Shown here in pieces: positions 254 through 36,478 of a DNA stretch of 64,000 nt (its first letter is position 1; each line of letters starts with the position of its first letter). Origin of the DNA: Methylotenera sp. (GTDB lineage: Bacteria; Pseudomonadota; Gammaproteobacteria; Burkholderiales; Methylophilaceae); contig JBKJIJ010000021.1 of NCBI GenBank assembly GCA_046598525.1, positions 7,142 to 71,141 of the forward strand, in the 5' to 3' direction. A program made the translations under genes and the position numbers. The notes beneath the pieces were generated by a model. The model was not told the origin of the DNA. It ran no database searches and saw only the letters and a program-made list of their open reading frames with translations.

Positions 254-684
254 TAGCTCTCAACTTTATTGGCTGAGGTTTTAACGGATGCGATTTTTTT
301 GGATGCCGCTACACTAGGTTTTGCAACACGCGGCTTGCGTGCAGGCTTACTTTCTGGAATTTTTTCTGGTTTATCTGCGGCTATAGATTCAGATTTTGCT
401 GCAGGCTCATTTTGAACGATGATGGCACTTTCAATTTCTGCTGCCTGTTGCTGAATATTGGATTGCGCCAACTCTACGGATTGTTTGATTTCTTGCTGTA
501 ATTTCTGCAACTCTTCAAATCGAAATTCGCGATTGACTTCCTCTTTTACCTGTCCCACATAACGTTGCATGCGGCCTGTTAGCGCGCCAATAGTACGCGC
601 TACTTTTGGCAATTTTTCTGGGCCTATCACCAGCAAAGCAATAACGGCGATAACCATTAATTCAGAAAATGAAACGTCAAACAC
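253..684 (-). CDS. tatB: Tat translocase subunit TatB
   Basis: MFDVSFSELMVIAVIALLVIGPEKLP motif; between tatA and tatC. Confidence 0.95.
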   Translation of the reverse strand: MFDVSFSELMVIAVIALLVIGPEKLPKVARTIGALTGRMQRYVGQVKEEVNREFRFEELQKLQQEIKQSVELAQSNIQQQAAEIESAIIVQNEPAAKSESIAADKPEKIPESKPARKPRVAKPSVAASKKIASVKTSANKVES

Positions 685-719
685 GTTTATAACCCGTCAC
701 TAATCTTTTTTTAATTCGC

Positions 720-932
720 TTATTGTTTCGTCTTATTAGTAACTTCACCTTCAATGGTGGTGCCTACATCTTCTTTTTTGGTATCGGTAATTTGCTCATC
801 TTTAACAGCCTTTTTAAATTCATTTACCGCGCCGCCCATATCGCTGCCCATATTGCGTAATTTTTTGGTGCCAAAAATCAACACTACAATTAGCAACACA
901 ATTAACCAATGCCATAAACTAAATGAACCCAT
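720..932 (-). CDS. tatA: Tat translocase subunit TatA
   Basis: [33 protein letters not shown]; AGGAG Shine-Dalgarno spacing favours the second ATG (932). Confidence 0.95.
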
Positions 933-959
933 CATAATCTCCTAAATTTTCGGTATTTC

Positions 960-1277
960 TTAGCCACCAAATACGTGCACATGAATATGAAAAACCTCTT
1001 GCCCACCTTCGCGGCCAGTATTAATCAATGTTTTAAAACCAACCAAGCCTTGGCTTTCAGCCAATTTTGGCGCCAGCAACAAGGCTTTACCCAACATTGC
1101 TTGATGCGTTTCAGTGCAATCTTTAAGCGTTTCAATATGCATTTTTGGCACAATTAAAAAGTGCACTTTTGCCATCGGCTTAATGTCATAAAAGGCAATA
1201 AAATCGTCATCTTCATGAATTTTTTTGGCTGGTATATCGCCATTAATAATCTTACAAAATATGCAATCTAAGCTCAT
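960..1277 (-). CDS. hinT: HIT-family nucleotide-binding protein
   Basis: DCIFCKI N-terminus and HIHVHVFGG histidine triad. Confidence 0.9.
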   Translation of the reverse strand: MSLDCIFCKIINGDIPAKKIHEDDDFIAFYDIKPMAKVHFLIVPKMHIETLKDCTETHQAMLGKALLLAPKLAESQGLVGFKTLINTGREGGQEVFHIHVHVFGG

Positions 1278-1612
1278 TATTTTGGGCGACTTTCTTTCTC
1301 TAGCCTATTTTCTTTTTCTTCTAGGCCAGACAAGCCTTCACGGCGCGCCAATTCATCCAGCACGTCTTGTGGCTTTAAATCGGCTTTGGCCAGCATAATC
1401 AGCGTGTGAAACCATAAATCGGCGGTTTCATAAATTATCTCTTGTTTATCGCCGCCTTTGGCTGCAATCACTGTTTCAGTGGCTTCTTCGCCAATTTTTT
1501 TCAGTATACTATCCATGCCTTTGGCATACAGCTTAGCCACATAGGACGAAGCTGGATCAGCGCTTTTGCGCTGCTCTAATAATTCACTAAGCCTATTTAA
1601 AACATCATTCAT
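1277..1612 (-). CDS. hisE: Phosphoribosyl-ATP pyrophosphatase
   Basis: [24 protein letters not shown] motifs. Confidence 0.95.
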
Positions 1613-2003
1613 GCTTGCCTGTTTCTTTGTATATTTCGTCTGGATTCTTAATCACGGCTTGGTCAATAAGCCATTGATTATTGTCTAATTTTTTAAAAAA
1701 GCAATTATGCCTGCCAGTATGACAAGCAATACCGCCGATTTGCTCAACATTAATCAAAATCACATCTTCATCGCAATCTAGGCGAATATCATGCACTTTT
1801 TGAATATGGCCAGATTCTTCACCTTTACGCCATAATTTGTTGCGCGAACGTGACCAATATACCGCTTGTTTCGATTCTGATGTGAGCTCCAATGCTTCGC
1901 GATTCATCCAAGCAAACATTAACACTTTGCCTGTAGCATGTTCTTGCGCGATTACTGGCACCAAGCCATTTGCGTCCCAGTTTACTTCATCTAGCCAGTT
2001 CAC
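1605..2003 (-). CDS. hisI: Phosphoribosyl-AMP cyclohydrolase
   Basis: [27 protein letters not shown]. Confidence 0.95.
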
Positions 2004-2767
2004 AGCCTAACCTCAATATTATGCTCACGCATATAAGCTTTTGCTTGTGCTACCGTGTATTCGCCATAGTGAAAAATACTGGCTGCTAACACCGCATCGG
2101 CACCACCAATAGTTACGCCATCCACCAAGTGCTGCAAATTACCCACGCCGCCAGAAGCAATCAATGGCACGTCCACGGCATCGCTAATCGCACGATTTAA
2201 TGGGTTATTAAAGCCAATTTTAGTGCCATCTCTATCCATACTTGTTACTAGCAATTCACCCGCGCCTAGGCTTACCATATGCTGCGCCCATTTAACGGCA
2301 TCTAAGCCTGTGGCTTTGCGGCCGCCATGCGTAAACACTTCCCATTCGAATGGTTGATTGTCTACTTTTTTAGCATCAATGGCTACCACAATACATTGCG
2401 AGCCAAAGCGGGCAGCGGCATCTTGTACCACTTGTGGATTTAATACGGCGGTGGTGTTGATGCTGACTTTATCGGCGCCAGCATTCAATAAGCGGCGCAC
2501 GTCTTCTACTTCGCGCACGCCACCACCAACGGTTAGCGGTATAAATACTTGGCTGGCGACTTGCTCAATAATATGCAAAATCAAGCCGCGATTATCAGAG
2601 CTAGCGGTAATGTCTAAAAAGGTCAGCTCATCCGCACCTTGGTCGTCATAGCGTTTAGCAATTTCAACAGGGTCGCCAGCGTCGCGCAGCTCTAAAAAAT
2701 TGATGCCTTTAACCACGCGGCCATCGGTTACATCCAAGCAAGGAATAATGCGCTTAGCTAATGCCAT
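2000..2767 (-). CDS. hisF: Imidazole glycerol phosphate synthase cyclase subunit
   Basis: [24 protein letters not shown]. Confidence 0.97.
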
Positions 2768-2776
2768 AAGGGTTTT

Positions 2777-3517
2777 CTAAGCACTCAACTCGTCTGCTAA
2801 TTGTTGTGCAGCCGCAAAATTAATGGTGCCTTCATAAATGGCGCGGCCAGTAATAGCGCCAACAATACCCTCGCTTGCTACCGCGCACAATTTACGCACA
2901 TCATCTAAATTGGTCACGCCACCTGAGGCAATTACTGGAATCGTCAACGCCTGCGCCAACGCAACAGTCGCCTCAATATTTACACCGGTTAACATGCCAT
3001 CGCGGCCAATATCGGTGTAAACAATGGCATTTACGCCATAATCTTCAAATTTTTTCGCCAAATCAATCACATCGTGGCCTGTGAGTTTTGACCAGCCATC
3101 AATCGCTACTTTGCCATCTTTGGCATCTAAACCCACCATAATCTGGCCAGGGAAAGCATAACAAGCTTCATGTAAGAAACCGGGCGTTTTAACCGCGGCC
3201 GTGCCAATAATGACATAATCAATGCCGTCATCCAAATAACGCTCAATCGTTTCTAAATCGCGAATACCGCCGCCAAGCTGAATGGGGATTTCACCTTTAC
3301 AGGCCGCCACAATAGATTTGATGGCCGCTTCATTAACAGGCTTGCCTGCAAACGCACCGTTTAAATCCACCAAATGTAGTCGTTTGCCGCCTTGATCAAC
3401 CCAATGTCGCGCCATAGCGCCTGGGTCTTCTGAAAAAACGGTGGATTCTTCCATAAGGCCCTGTTTTAAACGCACACAGTGGCCATCTTTGAGATCAATT
3501 GCAGGAATAATAAGCAT
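2777..3517 (-). CDS. hisA: ProFAR isomerase
   Basis: [30 protein letters not shown]. Confidence 0.97.
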
Positions 3518-3581
3518 GATTTTTATTGATTAAAATGACAAAAATAATGAAAGGTTTAGTTTAAAAAGGCTTTTAAACACG

Positions 3582-4235
3582 TTAAGGTTTCCAATATACA
3601 AAGTTACGCAGCAATTGCAAGCCAGCTTGTGCACTTTTTTCTACGTGAAATTGCGTAGCAAATATATTATCTTGCGCGACAACGCTGCAAAATCGATTAG
3701 GGTATTCCGTTTCACCCGCAATTAAAGTCGCGTCTTTTGGTGCGGCATAATAACTATGCACATGATAAAACCGTGTCGCATCCGCAATTTCTTGCCACAA
3801 ATCATGGGCTTTATTTTGCGCATTTTTAACTTGGTATACTTGATTCCAGCCCATGTGCGGGATTTTTAGTTTTTCGTTATTGACTATTTGATGCGCCGCA
3901 AACCGTTTTACGTCGCCTCTAAATAAGCCTAATCCTGCGGTATCGCCTTCTTCAGAATGATCAAACAGCAATTGCATACCAATGCAAATGCCTAAAAAAG
4001 GCTTGTTGGCGGCGGCGTTTAAAATGGCGCCGCGTAAGTTTCTACTATCTAATTCGCGCATGCAATCTGGCATGGCGCCTTGACCAGGGAAAATCACCCG
4101 CTCTGCCTGCTCAATTATTGCCGCATCGCTGGTAACCACCACCGATTTACCACCAGCCACATGCTCAACCGCTTTTGAAACGGAGCGCAAATTGCCCATG
4201 CCGTAATCGACGACTGCGATATCTATTTTAGCCAT
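3582..4235 (-). CDS. hisH: Imidazole glycerol phosphate synthase glutaminase subunit
   Basis: DYGMGNLRSV, GICIGMQ nucleophile elbow, TQFHVEKS. Confidence 0.96.
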   Translation of the reverse strand: MAKIDIAVVDYGMGNLRSVSKAVEHVAGGKSVVVTSDAAIIEQAERVIFPGQGAMPDCMRELDSRNLRGAILNAAANKPFLGICIGMQLLFDHSEEGDTAGLGLFRGDVKRFAAHQIVNNEKLKIPHMGWNQVYQVKNAQNKAHDLWQEIADATRFYHVHSYYAAPKDATLIAGETEYPNRFCSVVAQDNIFATQFHVEKSAQAGLQLLRNFVYWKP

Positions 4236-4254
4236 TTATTCAGTACCAGAGTGC

Positions 4255-4842
4255 TTATAAGCTGCCTTTGGTGGATGGCATAATGCCTGCCATGCGCGCG
4301 TCAAATGTCACTGCCATGCGCAGTGCGCGTCCAAACGCTTTAAAAATCGTTTCGCATTGATGATGCGAGTTATGGCCTTTTAGATTATCGATATGCAAGG
4401 TGACATTGGCGTGATTGACGAAACCTTGAAAGAATTCGTGCACTAAATCCACATCAAAATCACCAATGGCCGAGCGCGTGAATTCACAATCAAACTCTAA
4501 ACCTGGGCGGCCAGATAAATCGAGCACAACGCGGCTTAATGCTTCATCTAGCGGCACATAGGCGTGACCATAACGGTTAATGCCTTTTTTATCACCAACG
4601 GCTTTGGCAAAGGCTTGGCCTAACGTAATGCCAATATCTTCAACGGTGTGATGCGCATCAATATGCAAATCACCTTTGGCCTGCACATTTAAATCAAACA
4701 GGCCATGACGCGCAATTTGATCCAGCATATGATCTAAAAAACCAATGCCGGTGTTAAATTGTGCTGTGCCGTTACCATCTATATTAATAGAGACAGTAAT
4801 TTGAGTTTCTAAGGTGTTGCGTGTGACTTCTGCTTGGCGCAT
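4255..4842 (-). CDS. hisB: Imidazoleglycerol-phosphate dehydratase
   Basis: [31 protein letters not shown]. Confidence 0.97.
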
Positions 4843-4877
4843 AAATATCTAAATTAAATCAATCAAATTAATGGCGT

Positions 4878-4907
4878 ATTTTAACTCAATCTCGATGTAA
4901 GGCGCAA
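4878..4907 (-). promoter_or_regulatory. Possible sigma70 promoter restarting the his operon at hisB
   Basis: TTGCGC (4907-4902) - 18 nt - TAAAAT (4883-4878) on the minus strand, just downstream of the hxlA terminator. Confidence 0.35.
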
Positions 4908-4973
4908 AATTGCGCCAAAAATAAAGTGTATCCTTAAAATAAACGGCTTTAAATAATAATTAAGCGGCATAAA

Positions 4974-5004
4974 TAAAAAAAGCCGACTATTAAGTCGGCT
5001 TTTT
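4974..5004 (-). terminator. Intrinsic terminator after hxlA
   Basis: AAAAAGCCGAC-TTAATA-GTCGGC followed by a T7 run on the minus strand. Confidence 0.85.
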
Positions 5005-5025
5005 AATAACAGCAATCAAACTAAA

Positions 5026-6003
5026 TTAGTTTGCTGTACCTGTTGCATCTTTAGCAGCACCTACTAAACCATCAGCAGCTGGAGCGGCAGCAGCATCAGC
5101 TGGTGCAACTTCTGCGGCTGGAGCAGCGTCGGCAGCTGGAGCTGACTCAACTGGTGCAGCTTCCATTGGTGCTACTTCTGCTGGTGCAGCATCAGCTGGA
5201 GCAGATTCCATTGGTGTTTCAGCTGCTGGCATTGCTTCTTCTACTACTGGAGTTTCAGCTGACATTTCTTCAGCTGATTTGTTACCAGTTAATAAATATA
5301 AACCTAATAAAACAGCACCTGCGATTAGTGCCCATGGTAAGTATTTACCCATGCCACCAGCTGCAGCTGTATTACCACGTGCTAAACCAGTGATTTCAGC
5401 GGCTGAAGCAGCTGGATCGGCTGCGCCATAAATTGCAGCACCTGCTACAACAATATCAGCACCTGCATCAACTACTTGACGCACTGTTGCTGCTTTAACA
5501 CCGCCAGCTACAGAAACTTTAGCACCAGTATTTAAACCAACAATCATTGCTAAGTCGTTAAATGGTGTTTGGCCAGCGGCTTGTTGATCTAAACCAGTGT
5601 GCACGCCAATGATGTGCGCGCCTAATTTAGCCACTTCTAATGTACGTGCTTTTTTGTCAGCAACGTTGATCAAATCCACTTGTGCTTGTTTGCCGTATTT
5701 ATTAGCAACATCAATTACGCCTTTAATTGTACCGATATCAGCAGTACCCAAAACGGTACAAATATCAGCACCTGCTTTGTAGAATGGCTCAGCTTCGTAG
5801 AAGCCAGCATCCATGGTTTTTAAATCGACTAAGATTTTGTTGTTTGGGAATTTAGCACGTAATGTTTTTAATAATTCAATACCGTTGTGCTTAATGCAAG
5901 GTGTACCGATTTCTAAAATATCTACGTGTGGTGCTACTTTAGTTGCTAATGCAACTGTTGCGTCAAAATCCAGTGAATCTAATGCCATTTGGGTTTGTGC
6001 CAT
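5026..6003 (-). CDS. hxlA: 3-hexulose-6-phosphate synthase with C-terminal transmembrane helix and Ala/Pro/Glu-rich tail
   Basis: QMALDSLD, EIGTPCIKHNG, DLKTMDAGFYEA, HTGLDQQAAG HPS motifs in the first ~210 aa; strongly biased codon usage. Confidence 0.93.
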   Translation of the reverse strand: MAQTQMALDSLDFDATVALATKVAPHVDILEIGTPCIKHNGIELLKTLRAKFPNNKILVDLKTMDAGFYEAEPFYKAGADICTVLGTADIGTIKGVIDVANKYGKQAQVDLINVADKKARTLEVAKLGAHIIGVHTGLDQQAAGQTPFNDLAMIVGLNTGAKVSVAGGVKAATVRQVVDAGADIVVAGAAIYGAADPAASAAEITGLARGNTAAAGGMGKYLPWALIAGAVLLGLYLLTGNKSAEEMSAETPVVEEAMPAAETPMESAPADAAPAEVAPMEAAPVESAPAADAAPAAEVAPADAAAAPAADGLVGAAKDATGTAN

Positions 6004-6243
6004 GGTGCTTATTCCTCCGAGCTCGCTAATAATTTAATTAATGTGATCGATTAAAATTATTTGATTAAAAAGTTAATATTTTGTAGTTATTTGGTCTTAA
6101 TTCAAAGTAATTTTACAAAATACTGTTTGCACATTTTGTACATTTCGACATCATAACCGCAATTGATTGATTATTTCAACAATTTGGGCACAAAATGATT
6201 ATAAAACAAGCGCTTTAGTGTAGTTTAGTGCTATTTAGATGGC

Positions 6244-7311
6244 TTATTCTGATTTTAGAATCACATTTAACGCTTGAACCAGACTATCTGACTGCGTATC
6301 GGTGCCAATTGTGATGCGAATATAGGGTGAAATACGCGCTGGCTTTTTAAAGTGGCGCACAATAATACTGTGTTCGCGCAATTTAGCCGCCAAAGCCGCG
6401 CCATCCATTTTTTTGTGCTTGGCAAAGATGAAATTGGCGCCTGACGGCAATACTTCAAAATTTAAAGACTGCAAATCATTAGTCAACGCATCTCTGGTTG
6501 AAATCACTTTAGCGCAAGTTTGTTCAAAATAATCATTGTCTTGCATGGCTGCAACCGCGCCCGCTTCAGCAAATCGATCAATCGGGTACGAATTAAAACT
6601 ATCTTTAACGCGGATTAACGCTTCGATTAAATCTTTATTACCTAGCGCATAACCCACGCGTAAACCCGCTAAAGAGCGCGCTTTTGAAAGCGTATGCGTG
6701 ACTAGCAAATTAGGATAGGTATTAATCAATTTAACCGCGGATTCTGTACCAAAATCCACATAAGCTTCATCAACCACCACCACCGAATGCGTATTTCGGC
6801 TTAATAACTGCTCAATTTGCGCTAGCGCTAGTGGAATACCCGTTGGGGCGTTAGGATTTGGGAAAATAATACCGCCATTAGGGCGCGCATAATCGTGAAT
6901 ATCAATCTCAAATTGTTTATTCAACGCAATGGTTTCATATTCAATACCATATAAACCGCAATACACCGGATAAAAACTATAGGTAATATCAGGAAATAAA
7001 AGCGGTTTATCATGCTTTAATAAAGCTTGAAACACATGCGCCAGCACTTCATCTGAGCCATTGCCGACAAAAACTTGATTCGAATCTAAGCCGAAATTTT
7101 GTGCGATTGCCGCTTTTAACTTATCAGAATTCGGGTCTGGATACAGACGCAAACTATCGGCCGCCTCTAACTTTAGCGCTTCAATGACCTTTGGGCTTGG
7201 CCCATAAGGGTTTTCATTGGTGTTAAGCTTAACCAAGTTACTTAACTTAGGCTGCTCACCCGGCACGTAGGGTGTAAGCCTATGTACAACATCACTCCAA
7301 TATTTACTCAT
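6244..7311 (-). CDS. hisC: Histidinol-phosphate aminotransferase
   Basis: [31 protein letters not shown] (PLP lysine). Confidence 0.96.
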
Positions 7312-7431
7312 AAAACCTACTACGCGACAAAATTGCGGCGTTGCGCGGTGCTCGCTTCCTCGCCGTACTATTTGTACTGGCTCGTCTCTGCGCTCCGTGC
7401 GCCTTGCACTTTTGCCGCTCGCTACGGTTTT
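7312..7431. repeat. ~120-nt imperfect palindromic dispersed repeat with GTAC-N5-GTAC core
   Basis: AAAACC...GGTTTT ends, internal complementary blocks, central GTACTATTTGTAC; related copy at 9470-9522. Confidence 0.7.
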
Positions 7432-7443
7432 GAAATTGGTTCA

Positions 7444-8739
7444 TCATTTCAAACGATATTCGGCTGATTTAGCATGCGCGGTTAAACCTTCGCCATGCGC
7501 TAAAACGGAGGCGATTTTGCCTAATTTTTGCGCGCCTTCGGCTGATACCATAATCAAGCTAGAGCGTTTTTGAAAATCGTACACGCCTAAAGGAGAGCTA
7601 AAACGTGCTGTGCGCGAAGTTGGTAGCACATGGTTTGGGCCTGCGCAGTAGTCCCCTAGCGCTTCACAGGTATCACGACCCATAAAAATAGCGCCTGCAT
7701 GTTTGATTTTCTTGCTCATTTCCAGCGGATTTTCGACGGATAATTCCAAATGCTCTGGCGCAATATAATTGCTAATCTCAATCGCTTCGTCTATATCTTT
7801 GGTCAAAATTAACGCGCCCCTATCAGTAATTGACGTGTTAATAATGTCTTTACGCGGCATGGCTTCAACTAGCTTTTGCATACTGGCTGCAACGGCATCT
7901 AAAAATGCGGCATCTGGGCTTAGTAAAATAGATTGCGCCAATTCGTCATGCTCGGCTTGGCTAAATAAATCCATCGCAATCCAATCAGGATTGGTTTTAC
8001 CATCGCAAATCACTAAAATCTCTGACGGCCCTGCCACCATATCAATGCCTACCACACCAAATACGCGGCGTTTGGCGGCAGCCACATAAGCATTACCTGG
8101 GCCAGTAATTTTATCCACTTGCGGCACTGTTTCTGTGCCATAAGCCAGCGCACCAACGGCTTGCGCGCCGCCAATACAAAATACGCGGTCTACGCCAGAA
8201 ATTGCCGCTGCGGCTAACACCAACGCGTTTTTTTCGCCATTTGGCGTTGGCACCACCATGATTAACTCAGCAACACCGGCCACTTTGGCAGGAATGGCGT
8301 TCATTAATACGCTTGAAGGATAAGCCGCTTTGCCGCCTGGCACATACAAACCAACGCGGTCTAATGCGGTAACTTGCTGGCCAAGTAATGTGCCGTCGGC
8401 CTCCCTGTAACTCCATGATTGCATCACTTGTTTTTCGTGGTAGCTACGTACTCTGTCAGCCGCCGCCTGTAAAGCTTGGCGCTGATCTGTTGGCAAGCTA
8501 TTTAATGCGGCTTGCAAATCGGCTTGGCTAATTTCAAGCTCACTCAAATGACTGGCGCTGGTTTTATCAAAACGATTGGTATATTCCAACACCGCGGCAT
8601 CGCCACGATTTTTTACGTCTTTTAAAATATTGGCAACCACCACATCAATAGAATCGTCTTGCGCGGTTTCAAAAGCCAATAAAGCCTTTAAATCGGCATC
8701 AAATGTGCTGTCTTTGGTAGATAAACGTCTAATCTTCAT
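7444..8739 (-). CDS. hisD: Histidinol dehydrogenase
   Basis: [37 protein letters not shown]. Confidence 0.97.
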
Positions 8740-16516: not shown

Positions 16517-17161
16517 TTAGAAGGCCATGCACACATTAAATACACTAGCGTCCAACACTGTTGCATTTTCGTCCCAACCTGCAACAGCTGAATATACTCT
16601 TAAAGACCCAGTAGCAGTATTGCTGTCATCAAGAGTTGTATCAAGTTGCTTTGCAAACTTACCCAAAATTCCCGCCGAACAAATAACATAAGCACCACTC
16701 AAAGGCGTAGGCAACACAGGAATATTTGTTGCTCCAGCAATACTTTGAACACCGATTCGTCCACCGTCTGCATTAGTTGGGTAGTAACCACCTGCGCCCA
16801 CTACAGTTGGTCCAGGCGCAAGGCCTGCCAAGCGAACATGCTGCCAAAGAATGGCAGACTCATCGCCTATAGTTACTGAATTCCAGTTGCCACCAATAAC
16901 ACCGTTTCCCGCGCCTGTTGCAGCTTGGTTGGCAGCTGCTCCCAAATGCGCTACAGCAGCAAGATCGTCACCTGGCAGCGCTCTATATTTATCTTGGTAT
17001 CCGTAAATATAAACTTGTACATTTTGAAAATCCCGCGCCATGTTTTTAACCTTAGCACTGTTAATCAGCTCTTGACCTCTAAGCACGCCGCCTAGTAGTA
17101 AACCGATAATCACCAAAACAATTGCTAGTTCAATTAGGGTAAAACCTGATTGTTTATTCAT
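16517..17161 (-). CDS. Type IV pilin/pseudopilin-like protein (prepilin cleavage-methylation motif)
   Basis: MNKQSG/FTLIELAIVLVIIGLL; AAGGA SD upstream of ATG 17161 (the ORF-track start 17233 overlaps the promoter); two C-terminal Cys. Confidence 0.88.
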   Translation of the reverse strand: MNKQSGFTLIELAIVLVIIGLLLGGVLRGQELINSAKVKNMARDFQNVQVYIYGYQDKYRALPGDDLAAVAHLGAAANQAATGAGNGVIGGNWNSVTIGDESAILWQHVRLAGLAPGPTVVGAGGYYPTNADGGRIGVQSIAGATNIPVLPTPLSGAYVICSAGILGKFAKQLDTTLDDSNTATGSLRVYSAVAGWDENATVLDASVFNVCMAF

Positions 17162-17228
17162 TTTTTGTGTCCTTAACCTAATATAATTGTGTGAATTATA
17201 AAGTTTCATCACATTTTTTAACATTTGA

Positions 17229-17245
17229 TGCAAGCAACATGCCAG
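17229..17245 (-). promoter_or_regulatory. Sigma54 (-24/-12) promoter of the pilin-like gene
   Basis: CTGGCATGTTGCTTGCA: GG-N10-GC, matching TGGCAC-N5-TTGCW with one mismatch. Confidence 0.8.
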
Positions 17246-24049: not shown

Positions 24050-24772
24050 TTAAATACGCGTAAATACTAAATCCCATACACCGTGGCCTAATTTAATACC
24101 GCGATTTTCAAATTTGGTTAACGGTCTGTAAGCTGGTTTTTCAGCATAATCTATCGCCGTATTTTTTAATTGCGGCTCAGCCTTTAGCGCGTCTAGCACC
24201 CATTCCGCGTACTCTTGCCAGTCAGTTGCCACATGAATGTAAGCACCCACTTTCAATTTGGTACAAAGCAGCTTTAAAAACTCGGCTTGAATCAAGCGGC
24301 GCTTATGATGGCGTTTTTTATGCCAAGGGTCTGGGAAAAAGATATGTACGCCATCTAAACTATTATCTGCAATCATCTGTTGTAGCACTTCCACCACGTC
24401 ATGCTGGATGATGCGAATATTCTGGATGCTGGATTCTTCAATCAGCTTTAGCAAACTACCAACGCCTGGCGTGTGCACTTCTACCGCCACAAAATCGCAA
24501 TCCTGCAAGGTTTGCGCGATTTTGGCGGTGCTTTCACCCATGCCAAATCCAATTTCTAGGATTTTTTTGCTATTAGGCCTAGCAAATACTTGATTCAAAT
24601 CCAGTAAATTTTCGGCATATTCAATGCCAAATTGTGGCCAAACCGTTTCTAGCGCATGCGCCTGGCCTTTAGTTAAACGGCCCTGACGCAACACAAAGCT
24701 GCGAATACGGCGGTTCATATGTGCGTTTGGCACATCGTTTTCAGGTGTTTCTGTTTTAATTAAATCGGTCAT
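24050..24772 (-). CDS. trmB: tRNA (guanine-N7)-methyltransferase
   Basis: RIRSFVLRQGR, LEIGFGMG, FFPDPWHKKRHHKRR, TKFENRG; own ATG at 24772. Confidence 0.95.
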   Translation of the reverse strand: MTDLIKTETPENDVPNAHMNRRIRSFVLRQGRLTKGQAHALETVWPQFGIEYAENLLDLNQVFARPNSKKILEIGFGMGESTAKIAQTLQDCDFVAVEVHTPGVGSLLKLIEESSIQNIRIIQHDVVEVLQQMIADNSLDGVHIFFPDPWHKKRHHKRRLIQAEFLKLLCTKLKVGAYIHVATDWQEYAEWVLDALKAEPQLKNTAIDYAEKPAYRPLTKFENRGIKLGHGVWDLVFTRI

Positions 24773-25228
24773 GGCAAGATTATACTTGATTCCCCTCTCC
24801 CGCCTGTGGGAGAGGGCTAGGGAGAGGGATAAATTATTTATTATGTGCTGTCGAATGTCTTCAAGCACGCCCTCTAGCTCGCTCAGCACCTGATTATTCC
24901 AAAATCGCAATACTCGAAAACCTTGGCTCTCAAGAAACTGGGTTCGTTTTGTGTCATACAGTGATTGAATTGCATGCTGACCACCGTCCAACTCGATAAT
25001 CAACATTTGCTCTATGCATATAAAATCCGCTATGTATGGACCAATCGGCTTTTGACGCTTAAATTTTAGATTTAAAAATCTACTGGCGCGTAATCGATAC
25101 CAAAGCTGCTTTTCTGCATCCGTTTGATTACGGCGTAATAACTTTGCATTGTTTAATATCTGGTTCAATTGCAACCCTCTCTCTAACTCTCTCCCTGCAA
25201 GGGAGAGAGGATTTGGTGCATCTTGCAT
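24050..25228 (-). CDS. DUF559 (Vsr-like) endonuclease domain read in frame into TrmB (392-aa ORF)
   Basis: LRRNQTDAEKQLWYRLR, FKRQKPIGPYIADF, IELDGGQH, GFRVLRFWN; no stop before trmB. Confidence 0.75.
   Translation of the reverse strand: MQDAPNPLSLAGRELERGLQLNQILNNAKLLRRNQTDAEKQLWYRLRASRFLNLKFKRQKPIGPYIADFICIEQMLIIELDGGQHAIQSLYDTKRTQFLESQGFRVLRFWNNQVLSELEGVLEDIRQHIINNLSLSLALSHRRERGIKYNLAMTDLIKTETPENDVPNAHMNRRIRSFVLRQGRLTKGQAHALETVWPQFGIEYAENLLDLNQVFARPNSKKILEIGFGMGESTAKIAQTLQDCDFVAVEVHTPGVGSLLKLIEESSIQNIRIIQHDVVEVLQQMIADNSLDGVHIFFPDPWHKKRHHKRRLIQAEFLKLLCTKLKVGAYIHVATDWQEYAEWVLDALKAEPQLKNTAIDYAEKPAYRPLTKFENRGIKLGHGVWDLVFTRI
24792..25210. mobile_element. Candidate small mobile unit: DUF559 nuclease flanked by inverted CCCTCTCCC/GGGAGAGGG palindromes
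   Basis: Flanks 24792-24828 and 25175-25210 share a hairpin + YTA + third 9-mer architecture in inverted orientation; mobility itself is inferred. Confidence 0.55.
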
Positions 25229-27294: not shown

Positions 27295-29556
27295 CTAGGC
27301 TTGAGATAGAAAATCGGCCGATTCAATGCCTTTAATTAGGTCAACAATATGCTTGGCGGCAACGGGTTTAGAAAACAAATATCCTTGTGCCGCATAGCAA
27401 CCTAATTTTTTGAGCTTTTGATACACTTTTGTATTTTCAACGCCCTCTGCAATCACATCAATATTCAAGTTTTTTGCTAACTCTAGCGTAGAGCGCACAA
27501 TGGTTTCGCTAAATTTGTCGTTTAGCATAACTCTAATAAATTGCTGATCAATTTTAAGATAATGCAGCGGCAATTGTTGTAAATACAGTAGCGAGCTATA
27601 GCCTGTGCCGTAATCATCAATGCTGATTTTAACGCCTAATTCCATCAATCCTTCTAGCACGGCTTTAACGCGCGCAGGGTCAGAAAGCGCGCTGGACTCT
27701 GTAATTTCAATCTCTAAATAGCTGGCTGGCATGTTGTTTTGTACCAGTGCGTCTTTAATTTCATTGGCCAAATCAAAATTCATTAAATCTCTGGCGGTTA
27801 CATTTAATGCAATGCTAATCATTAAACCTTGCTCACTCCAAACCCGCCATTGCTTGGTTGTGTCGTTAAGCACAAGGGTAAATAGGCTATGAATTAAATC
27901 GGTGGCTTCTATTTGTGGTAAGAATTTATCAGGCGGCAGCAGCCCGCGTTCAGGGTGTTGCCAGCGAATCAGCGCCTCTACCCCCATGACTTTTTGGCCG
28001 CTAACAAACACTTTGGGTTGGTAATAAACCACCAGTTGACGCTTGGCAATGGCGCTGCGAAAATCGACAAAAACCCAGCTTTTATCTTCTTCTATATCTT
28101 TTTGTTTATCGTAAACTTCTACTTGAGATTGATTGCGCTTGGTGCTGACTAATGTGCGTTCGCATTCTTTTAGCATGGTCATGTAGCCCACTTTTTCTTG
28201 AGCCGCATTAATCGATACGCCAATGCTGCAGGTCGCCTTTATCTTTAAACCATTCACATTAATCGGCTCATTTAACGATTCATGAATCTGCCAAGCTTGT
28301 GCTTCTATATCCTGTCTATTCTTAATATTACTCATTAATAAGGTAAATTCATCGCCGTCCACCCTGGCGAATTGATGACCCTTTTTAAGGCACTCAGCGT
28401 AAAGATTCACGGCGATGGTTTTTAGAATTGAATCGCCGACACTAAAGCCAAAGGTGTTATTAATCGCCTTAAATCCGTCAATATCAATCAATAGCAAACC
28501 ATTGTAGCCGCGACCTTGCTGGCTTAAATTATCAATATTAACTCCTGCCACATTCTCAATATGGTTACGATTAGGTATGCCAGTTAGGTAGTCTGTTCTA
28601 TTTTGCGCCTCTAATTATTGGGTGACCCGCACAATATTTTGCACGGACGTTCTAAGCTGGTACCAGCCCAGCAACATGACCAAAAAGAATCCCACCAAAA
28701 TACCTATGGTGGCTGGGTGCAAGGCTTTAAAGTAAATAATCAAAAGGGTTACTGGCAATAGCAAAACCAAGGGCATCAAAAGCCTTAGCACATGCGTAAT
28801 ATGGCTACTATCTTTGCTTGTCCTTGGAATCACTAACTTCTTCATATCAGGGTGCATAGCCACCGCGCCAAACAGCACATAGGCCAGCAGCCATAAAATT
28901 AAGTTAAAATCAGTAGGCACGCCTAAACTATGGCTGGTGCCATGAAAATACGATTCGCCAGCGGCAAATAATACTGTGCCTATCGCCAGTAGAATAAATG
29001 CCTTCGATTGATTCGCTTCACTACTGACCCAAATCCAAAACAACATGCCAATTTCAATATAAGCAAAGGTCGGATAAATCATCCTAAAGGTCTGTGGCCT
29101 ATGCAATGAAAATCCATGCTCAACAATAGTGGGTAAAAATAAAAACTGCCAGCCGATGAGTATCAAGCTAGTCGCCATTATCCAGCCCTGAAAAAAACCG
29201 TGTTTAGGGAATTCACGATGAAGTTTGCTTGAAAACTGCCACAGCGCAGTCACCATTAACAGATGACCCAACAGCAGAAAAACATCGGCTGGTGATAAGG
29301 CTGCGCCAAACGCACCGCTGGCGTCCGTGTTGGCTTGAATAAGCCCACCGATAAATTGCGCCACCAACGATAATGAAAAGTAAATCCAAGGCCGAATCAC
29401 GTCGGCCTTTTCGGATTTATTTAAATTTAGTCCCCAATAAACGCCCAATAAACCATAAAAAGAGACAATAAAATACCAAGTGTCGCGCATACTCATGACA
29501 TCGGTAAATGGCAAGCAGAGCACAAAAAAATGCCTAGTATTAAATAAGCTTTCCAA
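27295..29556 (-). pseudogene. Membrane-domain GGDEF-EAL protein split by one in-frame TAA at 28615-28617
   Basis: ORFs 28615-29556 and 27295-28551 share a frame; the gap reads LEAQNRTDYLTGIPNR (GGDEF-domain start); DGDEF, EAL, DDYGTGYS, EGVE motifs. Confidence 0.8.
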
Positions 29557-30841: not shown

Positions 30842-33511
30842 ATGTCCAAACTACTCATTGTAGAATCACCTTCTAAAGCAAAAACGCTTAAAAAATACCT
30901 TGGTAACGATTTTGAGGTGTTGGCTTCTTACGGCCATATTCGTGATTTAATCCCAAAAAATGGCGCGGTTGACCCAGCCAATAATTTCGCCATGAAATAC
31001 GACATTATTGAGCGCAATTCTAAACACATGGACGCGATTACGCGTGCGGTTAAAAGTGCCGATAGCATCTATCTGGCAACCGATCCGGACCGCGAAGGTG
31101 AAGCGATTTCGTGGCATATTGCCGAAATTTTAGCTGAGAAAAAATTACTTAAAAACAAGCTATTAAAACGCGTTGAATTTAACGAAATCACGCAAACAGC
31201 GGTAAAACACGCTATTGATAATCCGCGTGATATTGCCATGAACTTGGTCAACGCGCAGCAAGCACGCCGTGCGTTGGATTATTTGGTTGGCTTTAATTTA
31301 TCGCCACTTTTATGGAAAAAGATTCGCAGGGGTTTATCGGCGGGCCGCGTACAAAGCCCTGCGTTACGTTTAATTGTTGAGCGTGAATTAGAAATTGAAG
31401 CATTCGTTAGCCAAGAATATTGGTCAATTCACCTAGATGCGTTGAAACATGCGCACAGCTTTAACGCCAAATTAATTCAATTAAACGGCCAAAAAGTAGA
31501 ACAATTCACCGTTGTTAATCATGACCAACAGGCTGATATTGTTGGCAAACTATTGCTGGCCAGTGCTGGCAAAACCACCGTTTCGCGCGTTGAGAAAAAA
31601 CAACGTAGCCGTAGCCCTGCCGCGCCGTTTACTACATCAACCTTGCAACAAGAGGCTGTGCGTAAACTTGGCTTTACTACTTCACGTGCGATGAGAGTCG
31701 CTCAACAGCTCTATGAAGGTGTGGATGTTGGCAGCGGTACTACTGGTTTAATTACCTATATGCGTACCGATTCGTTCAGTTTGGCGACTGAAGCGGTGAT
31801 GAGTATTCGCGATTATGTGAAAAAGAATTTTGACGCCGATTATTTGCCAAAATCGCCGATTATGTACAAAACCAAAGCCAAAAATGCGCAAGAAGCGCAT
31901 GAGGCGATTCGCCCGACCGATATTGAGCGCAGCCCAACCGCCATGCGCAAATATCTAAACGATGAGCAATTTAAATTATATGAAATGATTTGGAAGCGCA
32001 CGCTGGCTTGCCAAATGTCACCTGCCAAATTTGACGCGGTAAGTGTGGATTTAAGTGTTGGCAGTGAGGCCAATTTATTTCGCGCCACTGGCCAAACCTT
32101 GGTGTTCCCGGGATTTATCGCGGTGTATATGGAAGGCCGCGATGATGAAGAGGAAGAAGGCGAAAGCAAGTTGCCGCATCTTGAGGCTGGCGAAGTGTTA
32201 AATGTAGAAAGAATCTATGGCGATCAACACTTTACAGAGCCGCCGCCAAGATACGGTGAAGCCAGTTTGGTGAAAATTTTAGAAGAATACGGCATTGGCC
32301 GCCCTTCTACTTACGCCAGCATTATTAGCACGCTGCAAGACCGCGAATACGTGATTTTAGATAAAAAACGCTTTACCCCAACCGACGTAGGCCGCGTGGT
32401 GGTTAAGTTTTTAACGGAACATTTCACTAAATATGTGGATTACGACTTTACCGCCAACTTAGAAAATGCGCTGGATAACGTTGCCGATGGCTCACGCGAA
32501 TGGATTCCTTTAATGGATGAATTTTGGCAAGGCTTTAATGCGCAAATTATCAGCAAGGCCGATGTTGATAGGCCAGGCAACGAATTGATTGATGAAGCTT
32601 GCCCAAAATGTGGCAAGCCGCTGCAAAAACAACTAAGCCGATTTGGCACATTTATTGGCTGCACAGGTTATAACGATGAGCCAAAATGTGACTACAAACG
32701 CAGCATGAACGGCACCGCGCAAGCAGGCGCTGACCCAGTGACGATTGGCTTGGATGCTGAATCTGGCAAAGAAATATACTTAATGAACGGGCCTTATGGG
32801 CCGTATCTGCAAATTGGTGTAGCGGTTGAAGGCGAAAAGAAAAAGCCGAAACGCGTCAGTATTCCAAAAGAAATACCGATTCCTAGTGTGAATATCGATA
32901 TCGCCAATATGCTGTTATCACTACCGCGCGATTTAGGTTTGCACCCTGAAACCAATAAAAAAATCGTGGCTAATATTGGTCGCTTTGGGCCTTATGTCAA
33001 TCACGATGGCAAGTTTAAATCGATTCCAAAATCGGACAGTGTATTTAGCATTGATAACGCAGGTGCCGTTGCACTGCTAGCTGCCGCTAATACTGGCCCA
33101 GCGCCACTATTAGAGCTTGGCGCGCATCCATCTGGTGAAGGCAGAATTGAAGTATTTGCGGGCCGCTACGGGCCATATGTACAGCATGGCAAACTGCGCG
33201 CAACCTTGCCAAAAAGCATTGAGCCTGAATCTTTAACATTAGATGAAGCACTTGGTTTGCTAGCTGAAAAAGCCGCTAAAGATGAAGCAACAGGCAAAAC
33301 GGGCACTAAAAAAGTAGCGACTAAAAAAGCGCCTGCTAAAAAGACATTGGCTAAAAAACCGGCGGCCAAAAAAGCCAGTACTGCTACTAAAACAACAACT
33401 GAAAAAGCGGCTGTTAAAAAACCTGCGGCTAAAAAACCAGCCGTTAAAAAAGCGACGGTTAAAAAAACCACTACTGAAAAAGCAGCCACAGAAAAAGTAG
33501 CCGCTGAATAA
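30842..33511 (+). CDS. topA: DNA topoisomerase I with Lys/Ala-rich C-terminal tail
   Basis: IVESPSK, ATDPDREGE, SAGRVQS, GLITYMRTD, GIGRPSTY. Confidence 0.98.
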   Translation: MSKLLIVESPSKAKTLKKYLGNDFEVLASYGHIRDLIPKNGAVDPANNFAMKYDIIERNSKHMDAITRAVKSADSIYLATDPDREGEAISWHIAEILAEKKLLKNKLLKRVEFNEITQTAVKHAIDNPRDIAMNLVNAQQARRALDYLVGFNLSPLLWKKIRRGLSAGRVQSPALRLIVERELEIEAFVSQEYWSIHLDALKHAHSFNAKLIQLNGQKVEQFTVVNHDQQADIVGKLLLASAGKTTVSRVEKKQRSRSPAAPFTTSTLQQEAVRKLGFTTSRAMRVAQQLYEGVDVGSGTTGLITYMRTDSFSLATEAVMSIRDYVKKNFDADYLPKSPIMYKTKAKNAQEAHEAIRPTDIERSPTAMRKYLNDEQFKLYEMIWKRTLACQMSPAKFDAVSVDLSVGSEANLFRATGQTLVFPGFIAVYMEGRDDEEEEGESKLPHLEAGEVLNVERIYGDQHFTEPPPRYGEASLVKILEEYGIGRPSTYASIISTLQDREYVILDKKRFTPTDVGRVVVKFLTEHFTKYVDYDFTANLENALDNVADGSREWIPLMDEFWQGFNAQIISKADVDRPGNELIDEACPKCGKPLQKQLSRFGTFIGCTGYNDEPKCDYKRSMNGTAQAGADPVTIGLDAESGKEIYLMNGPYGPYLQIGVAVEGEKKKPKRVSIPKEIPIPSVNIDIANMLLSLPRDLGLHPETNKKIVANIGRFGPYVNHDGKFKSIPKSDSVFSIDNAGAVALLAAANTGPAPLLELGAHPSGEGRIEVFAGRYGPYVQHGKLRATLPKSIEPESLTLDEALGLLAEKAAKDEATGKTGTKKVATKKAPAKKTLAKKPAAKKASTATKTTTEKAAVKKPAAKKPAVKKATVKKTTTEKAATEKVAAE

Positions 33512-35482: not shown

Positions 35483-36478
35483 TTAAGGTAATACGAACTT
35501 CACCTTTAACAACAATTGCTGCAACTCTTCTGTTAGTTGCAGCCGTAAATCTTGCTCTAACGCTGGCAATGCGCTGGCTAAAATCTGCTGAATATTATCG
35601 CGCAACACTTCTTGCACTGCAGGTAAATCGCCATTCACAGTGCTTAAAAAGTCTTCTCTCAATGCTAAAGTTTGCGCATTCATTTCTTCTACAAATTTGG
35701 CTTTTACCTCACCAACGGCCGCCGTATAAATATCAGGCAGCGCCGCGTTTAAATCCGTTTTAACTTGCGTTAAGGCATCGTCTTGAATGGTTTGCATGTG
35801 TTGCTGCAACGCAAGGCTGGCTTGTTGCGAAATATCTTGGTACACATTAGTTAATGCTTCGTGCGCCAGCGTTTGCTGCTGTTGCAACGATGTATCGTGA
35901 AAAGCCTGCATTTCTTGCGTTAATTCTTGGCTAGCGCGCTGCGATGCCTCTGTTTTTAGCGCTTCAATATGTGTGCTAATTTCAGCGGTTGCGGCTTGGC
36001 TAGACGTTTGCATCACATCGGTGAGCATTCTATCCATTTTAGTAACCACATCGGTTTGCATAAGCGCAATCCGTTGTTGCAAGCTGGTATGCACTAAATC
36101 GGCGCTGGCTTGATACATGCGCGGCAACTCGGTTTTAAGATCCGCTTTGGTTTTATCCACAAAATCGCTCACATTGGATTCAATACCCAACTTAGTTTTA
36201 GCAATTTCAGCCTGCAGCTCATGCATCAAATCTTTTTTAAGCGTATCGCGCAAATTATCCATTACCGCTTGCGTGATTTCCGCCTCTAGCCTTGGCCGCA
36301 CATGGCCTGTTACGCGCGAAATAAATTCTGGCGTAATGCCTAAAGTTGGATCATTTGTGCGATTACTCTGCGCCTTAAAATCTTGCGTAGTAATACCAGA
36401 TGTATTAACGCCTGATTTGGGCTGATAAACGGTGGTCAGCACCGGTATTTTGCTATCTGATGAATGGTTATCGGCCAA
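35483..36478 (-). CDS. Hypothetical helical/coiled-coil protein with N-terminal IPVLT motif (DUF2486-like)
   Basis: Long ORF co-oriented with holC; Gln/Leu/Ala-rich amphipathic repeats. Confidence 0.7.
   Translation of the reverse strand: MADNHSSDSKIPVLTTVYQPKSGVNTSGITTQDFKAQSNRTNDPTLGITPEFISRVTGHVRPRLEAEITQAVMDNLRDTLKKDLMHELQAEIAKTKLGIESNVSDFVDKTKADLKTELPRMYQASADLVHTSLQQRIALMQTDVVTKMDRMLTDVMQTSSQAATAEISTHIEALKTEASQRASQELTQEMQAFHDTSLQQQQTLAHEALTNVYQDISQQASLALQQHMQTIQDDALTQVKTDLNAALPDIYTAAVGEVKAKFVEEMNAQTLALREDFLSTVNGDLPAVQEVLRDNIQQILASALPALEQDLRLQLTEELQQLLLKVKFVLP

Follow-up and report, generated by a model that had tools for sequence, protein, structure and literature searches.

The DNA considered here, a stretch of 64,000 nucleotides from a Methylotenera sp. 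(contig JBKJIJ010000021.1, positions 7,142-71,141), is hereafter called the window, and all coordinates given below are positions within it. Its histidine (his) cluster, with the gene order hisG-hisD-hisC-hps-hisB-hisH-hisA-hisF, harbours a gene for HPS, the formaldehyde-fixing enzyme of the ribulose monophosphate (RuMP) pathway. The product of this gene extends well beyond the catalytic barrel, with a linker, a predicted transmembrane helix and an acidic low-complexity tail. The gene and its parts are laid out as follows.

5026..6003, minus strand: hps1 coding sequence, a single uninterrupted open reading frame (ORF) of 325 residues plus a TAA stop codon, assigned to TIGR03128 and flanked by hisC (6244-7311) and hisB (4255-4842)
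5380..6003, minus strand: HPS (beta/alpha)8 barrel, residues 1-208, predicted cytoplasmic (Pfam, NCBIfam, AlphaFold2 and alignment to PDB 3AJX_A)
5344..5379, minus strand: Gly/Ala/Ser-rich linker, residues 209-220 (RGNTAAAGGMGK), which holds Met218 (AlphaFold2 confidence score, pLDDT, of about 56; variable among relatives)
5284..5343, minus strand: residues 221-240 (YLPWALIAGAVLLGLYLLTG), a predicted transmembrane helix whose LPW start is conserved (hydrophobicity, AlphaFold2, conservation)
5029..5283, minus strand: acidic Ala/Pro/Glu low-complexity tail, residues 241-325, predicted to be periplasmic and disordered (composition, AlphaFold2, repeats, RNA contigs)
5029..5070, minus strand: C-terminal motif GLVGAAKDATGTAN, residues 312-325, the only conserved sequence inside the tail (alignment of relatives)

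The hps1 gene and its extended product

All Methylophilaceae possess two HPS genes at conserved positions, one in the histidine cluster and the other in the tetrahydromethanopterin (H4MPT) cluster beside HPI and transaldolase (Beck et al. 2014, PMC4109929), and the two copies are about 90% identical (PMC4109929). They were named hps1 (Mmol_0313, M301_0304, Msip34_0268) and hps2 (Mmol_1338, M301_1547, Msip34_1498) (Vorobev et al. 2013, PMC3728764 supplement). Since its position in the his cluster matches that of the named hps1, the window gene is the orthologue of hps1. The hisC and hisB flanks recur in 60+ related loci, and the nearest locus of the genome collection, in a Methylotenera metagenome-assembled genome (MAG), is 98% identical over the barrel. 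Common to the window gene and the named Methylophilaceae hps1 are the hisC-hps-hisB position, a barrel 75-99% identical and a high level of transcription, independent of that of the his genes. That the enzyme exists in two copies, one of them oddly placed in a his operon, is already known; published accounts of hps1 and hps2 cover the copies and their identity, and the C-terminal helix, tail and amphipathic ending described below are unmentioned in the papers searched. The initial annotation of this DNA, made by a model from the letters alone, is extended here in two respects: the gene is the already named hps1 of the his operon, and its extension is the rule in Methylotenera and Methylophilus.

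The barrel is that of a canonical HPS. Residues 5-205 match TIGR03128 (RuMP_HxlA) with 248 bits for a cutoff of 200, residues 5-204 match Pfam OMPdecase PF00215 with 132.8 bits for a cutoff of 27, and residues 4-205 align to PDB 3AJX_A with an E value of 2.6e-47. In an AlphaFold2 model built from a 48-sequence alignment, most blocks of the barrel have a pLDDT above 90 and the last barrel helix corresponds to residues 197-208. Residues E31, D60, K62 and H135 are invariant in the 48-sequence alignment (A1) and identical in 3AJX_A; we take them to be the metal-binding and catalytic positions of the HPS/KGPDC suprafamily (Glu, Asp-x-Lys, His). From its family membership, the hps1 product is predicted to condense formaldehyde with ribulose 5-phosphate. 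Soluble HPS (HxlA/RmpA; Mycobacterium gastri 3AJX, 3F4W) share the same barrel and the same four residues. They end at 207-211 residues, whereas the window protein bears 117 more, distributed between the linker, the membrane helix and the acidic tail. The statement of the initial annotation that HPS is usually a soluble enzyme of about 210 residues agrees with the solved structures, of 207 (3AJX) and 211 residues (3F4W), both of whose alignments end at residue 205 of the window protein.

After the linker comes an uncharged hydrophobic span of 20 residues (221-240, nucleotides 5343-5284). Membrane spans were assessed with the Kyte-Doolittle mean over 19 residues (threshold 1.6), the Eisenberg mean hydrophobicity <H> and the hydrophobic moment, which for the hps1 helix reach 1.84, 0.73 and 0.04 respectively. 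AlphaFold2 predicts a helix at residues 221-239 with a pLDDT of 87-88. No signal peptide is present, the N-terminus leading straight into the first barrel strand of the model, and the protein as a whole displays one uncharged 20-residue span above 1.6 on the Kyte-Doolittle scale without a signal peptide, as expected of a single-span protein. The charges flanking the helix are +2/0 before it and +1/-4 after it, the whole tail amounting to -14. With 85 residues after the helix, and 28-112 in relatives, the protein falls outside the classical definition of tail-anchored proteins, in which the span lies within about 30 residues of the C-terminus. It also lacks a C-terminal amphipathic ending of the MinD type. 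The C-terminal sorting signals PEP-CTERM, GlyGly-CTERM and LPXTG were considered and rejected, the helix being followed by a long acidic tail and the signature motif being absent.

The tail numbers exactly 85 residues (A32, E11, P11, V6, D5 and two Lys), of which 64% are Ala, Pro or Glu, for a net charge of -14. AlphaFold2 assigns it a pLDDT of 40-52 and no secondary structure at all, and Tandem Repeats Finder detects degenerate periods of 15 and 18 nucleotides at 5097-5216, within the tail. The succession of HPS barrel, linker, hydrophobic helix and AAPAE-rich tail of about 85 residues is thus as the initial annotation had described it, the helix that it quoted (KYLPWALIAGAVLLGLYLL) lying at residues 220-238. 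A scan of the window ORFs uncovered no other Ala/Pro/Glu tail, and a genome-wide habit of adding such tails was rejected for want of a second case among these ORFs. A second low-complexity tail of the window, basic in nature, occupies residues 808-888 (about 80 residues) of DNA topoisomerase I (30842-33511, plus strand); its match to the Lys/Ala-rich, histone-H1-like HC2 family is weak (28 bits, below the cutoff of 40).

The start codon of hps1 is preceded at 9 nucleotides by a strong Shine-Dalgarno (SD) sequence, GGAGGA (6013-6018), and two further signals frame the coding sequence.

4977..5004, minus strand: intrinsic-terminator-like hairpin and T-run, with a 12-bp stem (AAAAAGCCGACT/AGTCGGCTTTTT) followed by a T-rich run, starting 21 nucleotides past the stop codon
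6150..6179, minus strand: sigma-70-like promoter candidate TTGAAA-18-TATGAT, which agrees with 10 of 12 consensus positions (a consensus match only)

The promoter candidate sits in the 240-nucleotide AT-rich spacer between hisC and hps. With its promoter-like site, strong SD sequence and terminator, hps1 has the appearance of a transcription unit of its own inside the his operon. In a comparison of 52 window genes, hps1 is the strongest outlier in codon bias: GCT and GCA make up 91% of its Ala codons (39% in the comparison), TTA 84% of its Leu codons (37%), and its GC content at third codon positions (GC3) is 0.21 (0.44). In the tail the bias equals or exceeds that of the barrel, with a GC3 of 0.13, CCA for all 12 Pro codons (100%) and GCT or GCA for 92% of Ala codons, in line with the biased codon style that the first reading had noticed throughout the gene. 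Second in the window for GCT/GCA preference (0.69) is a 238-residue protein with a prepilin-type N-terminal methylation motif (16517-17233, minus strand), for which this codon choice suggests high expression.

Transcription was approached through assembled metatranscriptome contigs (from ice) of related strains, which inform on presence and continuity and give no measure of expression. These contigs (window 4996-5589 and 5071-5418) extend without interruption from the terminator, by way of the tail and the helix, to the barrel. Since hps2 and other strains confound the depth measured over the barrel, the region specific to the tail and published RNA-seq tables served as evidence instead. The RNA word depth is 8-125 in the tail-specific region and about 1-30 in the neighbouring his genes (isolated bins to 90), and falls to zero in both intergenic flanks, including 4840-4973. 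Published RNA-seq values for hps1 are 576-5813 in Methylotenera mobilis, 1454-3785 in Methylotenera versatilis and 1884-7492 in Methylovorus, compared with about 140-1200 for hisC and hisD and 1402-26588 for hps2 (PMC3728764 supplement). The hps1 transcript therefore stands several-fold above hisC and hisD, and is exceeded about 3-6-fold by hps2 in the two Methylotenera and by a smaller factor in Methylovorus (PMC3728764). In the same data the downstream hisB (Mmol_0314, Msip34_0269) rises with hps1 and the upstream hisC and hisD do not, which suggests read-through from the hps promoter.

C-termini of HPS across relatives

With a survey of HPS C-termini, a verification that the initial annotation had itself put forward, we compared 315 sequences. 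They divide into 229 with a helix and tail, 72 with a short amphipathic ending and 14 without extension, counts that mirror the queries used and not natural frequencies. For 80 loci taken from species-representative genomes, each HPS gene was followed to its stop codon; a second protein search was seeded with the short form of Methylobacillus flagellatus. The recurrence of the helix in 229 of 315 relatives places it far beyond chance.

The long class, found in Methylotenera, Methylophilus and many MAGs, adjoins hisC and/or hisB and comprises proteins of 273-354 residues with a linker, a helix (Kyte-Doolittle 1.67-2.69) and an acidic tail. The top 120 homologues of the window protein are all 287-352 residues long and all carry a near-invariant helix, LPWALIAGAVLLGLY[LF]L, and behind it a tail that varies in length; the helix-plus-tail proteins of M. 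mobilis and M. versatilis count 294 and 293 residues. Across the 229 helix-bearing relatives the hydrophobic span measures 17-20 residues.

In the same his context, a short class of 225-226 residues ends in GG(L/V)FGWLK(K/G)LFS. It is encountered in M. flagellatus, Ca. Methylopumilus and other MAGs, and the search seeded with M. flagellatus returned 62 more proteins with this ending, including the M. flagellatus KT protein. Over the 72 orthologues the consensus is GG[LVFIM]FGW[LVI]K.LF[S/GG]. Drawn as an alpha-helix, GLFGWLKKLFS separates a face with L, F, W, L, L and F from an opposite face with G, K, K and S, and its hydrophobic moment of 0.35-0.46 contrasts with the 0.04 of the window helix. 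Downstream of the short-form stop codons, no relic of a longer frame was found.

The short ending looks like a peripheral membrane anchor. HPS enzymes are oligomers. The C-terminus of Escherichia coli MinD (NC_000913) reads ...EEEKKGFLKRLFGG, and a short-form variant, ...GLFGWLKKLFGG, is identical to the MinD FLKRLFGG at 6 of 8 positions, the other two being conservative. In MinD this segment is a membrane-targeting sequence that binds the membrane peripherally and reversibly; a single copy binds weakly and becomes effective by dimerisation (PMC8155659). As in MinD, the amphipathic helix of the short-form hps1 orthologues, ending ...GGLFGWLKKLFS/GG, is C-terminal and follows a flexible segment. 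The likeness is one of sequence and amphipathicity only, and it concerns the orthologues rather than the window protein, which has a full span. A MAFFT alignment places GG-LFGWLKKLFS in the same columns as the long-form GGMGKYLPWALI. The two anchor types occupy the same place, and they may share an origin.

The third class, of 14 sequences, stops at 209-211 residues with the ending ...EITxIAHG. Among loci with readable flanks, every extended form adjoins hisC and/or hisB and every 209-211-residue form lies elsewhere. One of the latter that was checked (L067) is located between transaldolase and a SIS-domain PHI, then H4MPT-type genes, which is the hps2 context. A neighbour-joining tree of the HPS barrels from the 80 loci (L001-L080) is poorly resolved: hps1 and hps2 do not form two clean clades and the paralogues are intermixed, possibly through gene conversion between paralogues, repeated anchor switching or poor resolution. 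A second helix-plus-tail group (L046, L049, L050, L052, L059, L061) is nearer to the soluble and amphipathic forms in this tree.

Outside the family, the best 150 representatives of a library-wide HPS survey (clusters at 50% identity) were retrieved and the longer proteins inspected; none of the longer HPS-like proteins inspected outside Methylophilaceae had a helix and acidic tail, and fusions to SIS/PHI and to RraA-like domains were among them. The nearest representative beyond Methylophilaceae (P0123, 217 residues, 62% identity) is devoid of anchor. On the sequences compared, the helix-plus-tail architecture is specific to Methylophilaceae hps1. A protein database search found no stand-alone homologue of the linker, helix and tail, the short matches being HPS fragments at contig ends that retain barrel residues. 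Fusion with a pre-existing membrane-protein gene was rejected, with no other carrier of the module and no remnant past the short-form genes.

The tails themselves are remarkably plastic. Over 228 long forms, the segment after the hydrophobic span measures 28-112 residues (median 62) and its net charge ranges from -26 to -1 (median -10). A, P, E, D, V, T, M, S and G together account for a median of 93% of its residues, and K, R, H, C, W, Y, F, N and Q for about 7%. Conservation is restricted to this composition and to an approximate five-residue rhythm. A terminal motif, [LF]V[GD][AQ]AK[DEA], is present in 69 of the 228 long forms, all of at least 304 residues; its very C-terminal form is GLVGAAKDATGTA(N/K), and shorter tails without the motif end in ...AAPAEAAK, AAQ or PAN. 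In a Methylophilus MAG (L043:4001-5023), the hps1 tail repeats contain a run of N followed by an apparent frame change, which corresponds to an assembly gap. Tail lengths in MAGs can consequently depend on assembly.

A comparable low-complexity region is known from the Neisseria H.8 lipoproteins Lip and Laz. Their AAEAP repeats are likewise betaproteobacterial, on the periplasmic side, membrane-tethered and disordered, with about 3 Ala, 1 Pro and 1 Glu per five residues or so (PMC9239064). These repeats lie in Ala/Pro-rich low-complexity regions that are glycosylated on Ser by the PglL/PglO O-oligosaccharyltransferases (PMC9239064). The HPS tail differs in the order of its residues (AAPAE or AAPVE, not AAEAP), in its place C-terminal to a helix rather than N-terminal after a lipobox, and in being without a folded domain; the window protein, with neither signal peptide nor lipobox, is not an H.8 lipoprotein. 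Of the 4 Ser in the window tail, two occur in ESAPA contexts; no O-oligosaccharyltransferase was found among the window genes scanned. O-glycosylation as a conserved role of the tail was rejected, 94 of the 228 tails (41%) having no Ser.

A proposed membrane-attached HPS and the alternatives

The domain anatomy, its conservation, the synteny, the expression and the codon optimisation of hps1 are matters of observation. We propose that hps1 encodes a bitopic inner-membrane isoform of HPS whose attachment to the membrane has been selected, and we hold this explanation, taken whole, to be probable. The occurrence of two different predicted membrane-binding devices at the same site of the same orthologue, and of none on its paralogue, suggests that attachment itself is under selection. 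On these grounds membrane attachment of hps1 is likely; membrane insertion, its topology and a function in formaldehyde interception are what we infer from sequence.

According to this proposal, the intact catalytic barrel would face the cytoplasm and be kept within a few nanometres of the membrane by the 12-residue linker. The single C-terminal helix would span the inner membrane in the N-in/C-out orientation and leave the 85-residue polyanionic, disordered tail in the periplasm. This would be the only sensible orientation, because the barrel needs cytoplasmic ribulose 5-phosphate and would fold before the helix leaves the ribosome; the flank charges (+2/0 inside, +1/-4 outside) appear to agree with it. 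Other genera would attach the same orthologue via the MinD-type amphipathic helix. The hps2 product, encoded in the tal-hps-phi cluster, would stay soluble and work in the bulk cytoplasm beside PHI.

Methanol dehydrogenases that depend on pyrroloquinoline quinone and methylamine dehydrogenase make formaldehyde in the periplasm. Formaldehyde from these enzymes has to pass the inner membrane; HPS, expressed at a high level and arranged in a dense layer along the cytoplasmic side, would be the first to meet it and would condense it with ribulose 5-phosphate as it comes in, limiting free formaldehyde in the cytoplasm. Such a membrane-proximal interception is plausible, and we advance it tentatively. 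The tail would have a mainly topogenic or physical role: a translocated acidic segment, driven across by the membrane potential, would fix the C-out orientation and then serve as a non-sticky spacer or retention element, probably without being a specific docking module. Translocation of acidic segments is aided by the membrane potential, as phage coat-protein insertion work established, which offers a simple reason for the exported segment being always acidic and nearly free of Lys and Arg.

The initial annotation had tethered HPS to the inner membrane for the capture of incoming formaldehyde, with a periplasmic tail that might contact methanol dehydrogenase, peptidoglycan or cations. The tether gains from the AlphaFold2 helix and the charges, and most of all from the MinD-like ending of orthologues and the unextended hps2; capture as its purpose is plausible. 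The proposed contacts of the tail are weakened by its variable length of 28-112 residues and its absence from the amphipathic forms. A specific periplasmic partner for the tail is unlikely, because the tail is hypervariable and many orthologues have none.

Several considerations weigh against a selected, membrane-spanning HPS. The helix has a high content of Gly and Ala and a hydrophobicity that is only moderate. In some relatives Lys flanks it on either side (as GKK following the helix in Methylophilus), so that the charge rule is not decisive. It is unusual in bacteria for a C-terminal anchor to export a tail of 28-112 residues. Capture would be of uncertain benefit, formaldehyde diffusing fast across the dimensions of a bacterial cell, and hps1, highly transcribed as it is, is yet the minor isoform beside hps2. 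Finally, the tree of barrels is too poorly resolved to count or order the anchor switches.

Among other explanations, the one that survives best makes the tail the point of the whole extension: it would bind the methanol dehydrogenases MxaF/XoxF, peptidoglycan, or Ca2+ or a lanthanide, the helix serving only to deliver it, and the production of formaldehyde on one side of the membrane would be physically linked to its fixation on the other. The tail is indeed always strongly acidic (net charge from -26 to -1, median -10), has at least 28 residues in every case and uses fully optimised codons, and the terminal motif GLVGAAKDATGTAN is kept in 69 of 228 long forms. However, the motif is missing from two thirds of them, composition alone is conserved over a fourfold range of lengths in which repeats expand and contract, and AlphaFold2 gives the tail no structure. 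Moreover, the amphipathic-helix orthologues occupy the same gene position without any periplasmic part. We regard this explanation as rather unlikely.

The helix might alternatively not span the membrane and rather mediate oligomerisation or a peripheral or conditional association, in which case the acidic tail would remain in the cytoplasm as an entropic bristle, a solubility tag or an element of degradation or regulation. Its richness in Gly and Ala and moderate hydrophobicity would suit such a role, as would the oligomeric nature of HPS and the peripheral amphipathic helix found at the same position in orthologues. On the other hand, an uncharged span of 17-20 residues with Kyte-Doolittle values of 1.67-2.69 and a near-zero moment is of the membrane-span type and not interfacial, and it is bordered by a conserved aromatic LPW edge and flanking Lys. 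A cytoplasmic tail with a net charge of -14 beside an anionic membrane surface would also be unfavourable. A non-spanning helix thus seems distinctly unlikely to us.

It is improbable that the extension arose through loss of a stop codon and slippage of repeats and is tolerated as largely neutral sequence without a function. Low-complexity, repeat-derived and hypervariable sequence is what such an origin would leave, but the extension is in frame in 229 relatives from several genera and never ends directly after the helix. The helix is near-invariant within Methylotenera, the codon optimisation of the tail equals or exceeds that of the barrel, and an independent membrane device is found at the same site in other genera. 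As for a separate small membrane protein of about 108 residues translated from the internal in-frame ATG that the initial annotation had pointed out at 5352, the codon exists just upstream of the helix (5352-5350, Met218), but the idea can practically be discarded: Met218 is replaced in relatives (GGLGK, GGFKW, GGNKLLPW, GGVKKF), the GGTGG ahead of it is 1 nucleotide from the ATG, an unusable spacing for an SD sequence, RNA contigs extend across this position and the protein database yielded no stand-alone homologue.

Elsewhere in the window, a 392-residue ORF (24050-25228, minus strand) joins a DUF559 domain (residues 21-129) to a tRNA (m7G46) methyltransferase TrmB (204-392), either an unusual fusion or the outcome of an over-extended start. 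Two ORFs of 313 and 331 residues (28615-29556 and 35483-36478, both minus strand) have no NCBIfam or Pfam match at E <= 1e-5.

Known systems and implications for methylotrophy

HPS has been found with extra terminal modules before, in HPS-PHI and Fae-HPS fusions and in fusions with an RraA-like domain. The modules of these fusions are folded cytoplasmic domains of the same pathway, whereas the addition to hps1 would be a localisation device. Ferenci, Strom and Quayle reportedly described in 1974 a membrane-bound HPS activity in Methylococcus capsulatus, a methylotroph of the RuMP pathway. That organism belongs to a different lineage (Gammaproteobacteria) from the hosts of hps1. A full-text search, which covered few subscription journals, found no paper on a transmembrane helix, C-terminal extension or amphipathic ending of HPS. 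A membrane-attached HPS isoform with two interchangeable anchor types appears to be undescribed.

On a more speculative note, the membrane device could have been swapped during the evolution of the family between a MinD-like helix and a span with its tail, the tail with the GLVGAAKDA end reaching periplasmic dehydrogenases or metal cofactors. We give this little credence; if it were true, the making of formaldehyde and its fixation would belong to a single metabolic unit that crosses the membrane.

Entry into the RuMP cycle is catalysed by HPS, which is also the enzyme most often moved into E. coli, Corynebacterium and other hosts for the construction of synthetic methylotrophs, in which formaldehyde toxicity is a central problem. 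If hps1 is attached to the membrane as proposed, appending the MinD-type helix or the hps1 anchor to HPS would offer an engineering idea for such strains. Such attachment would also be a further example of a soluble enzyme of central metabolism that is spatially organised by a small terminal add-on, and the two interchangeable anchor types would provide a natural experiment on what membrane proximity contributes. For the Methylophilaceae themselves, it would explain the retention of two near-identical HPS genes at conserved, different loci.

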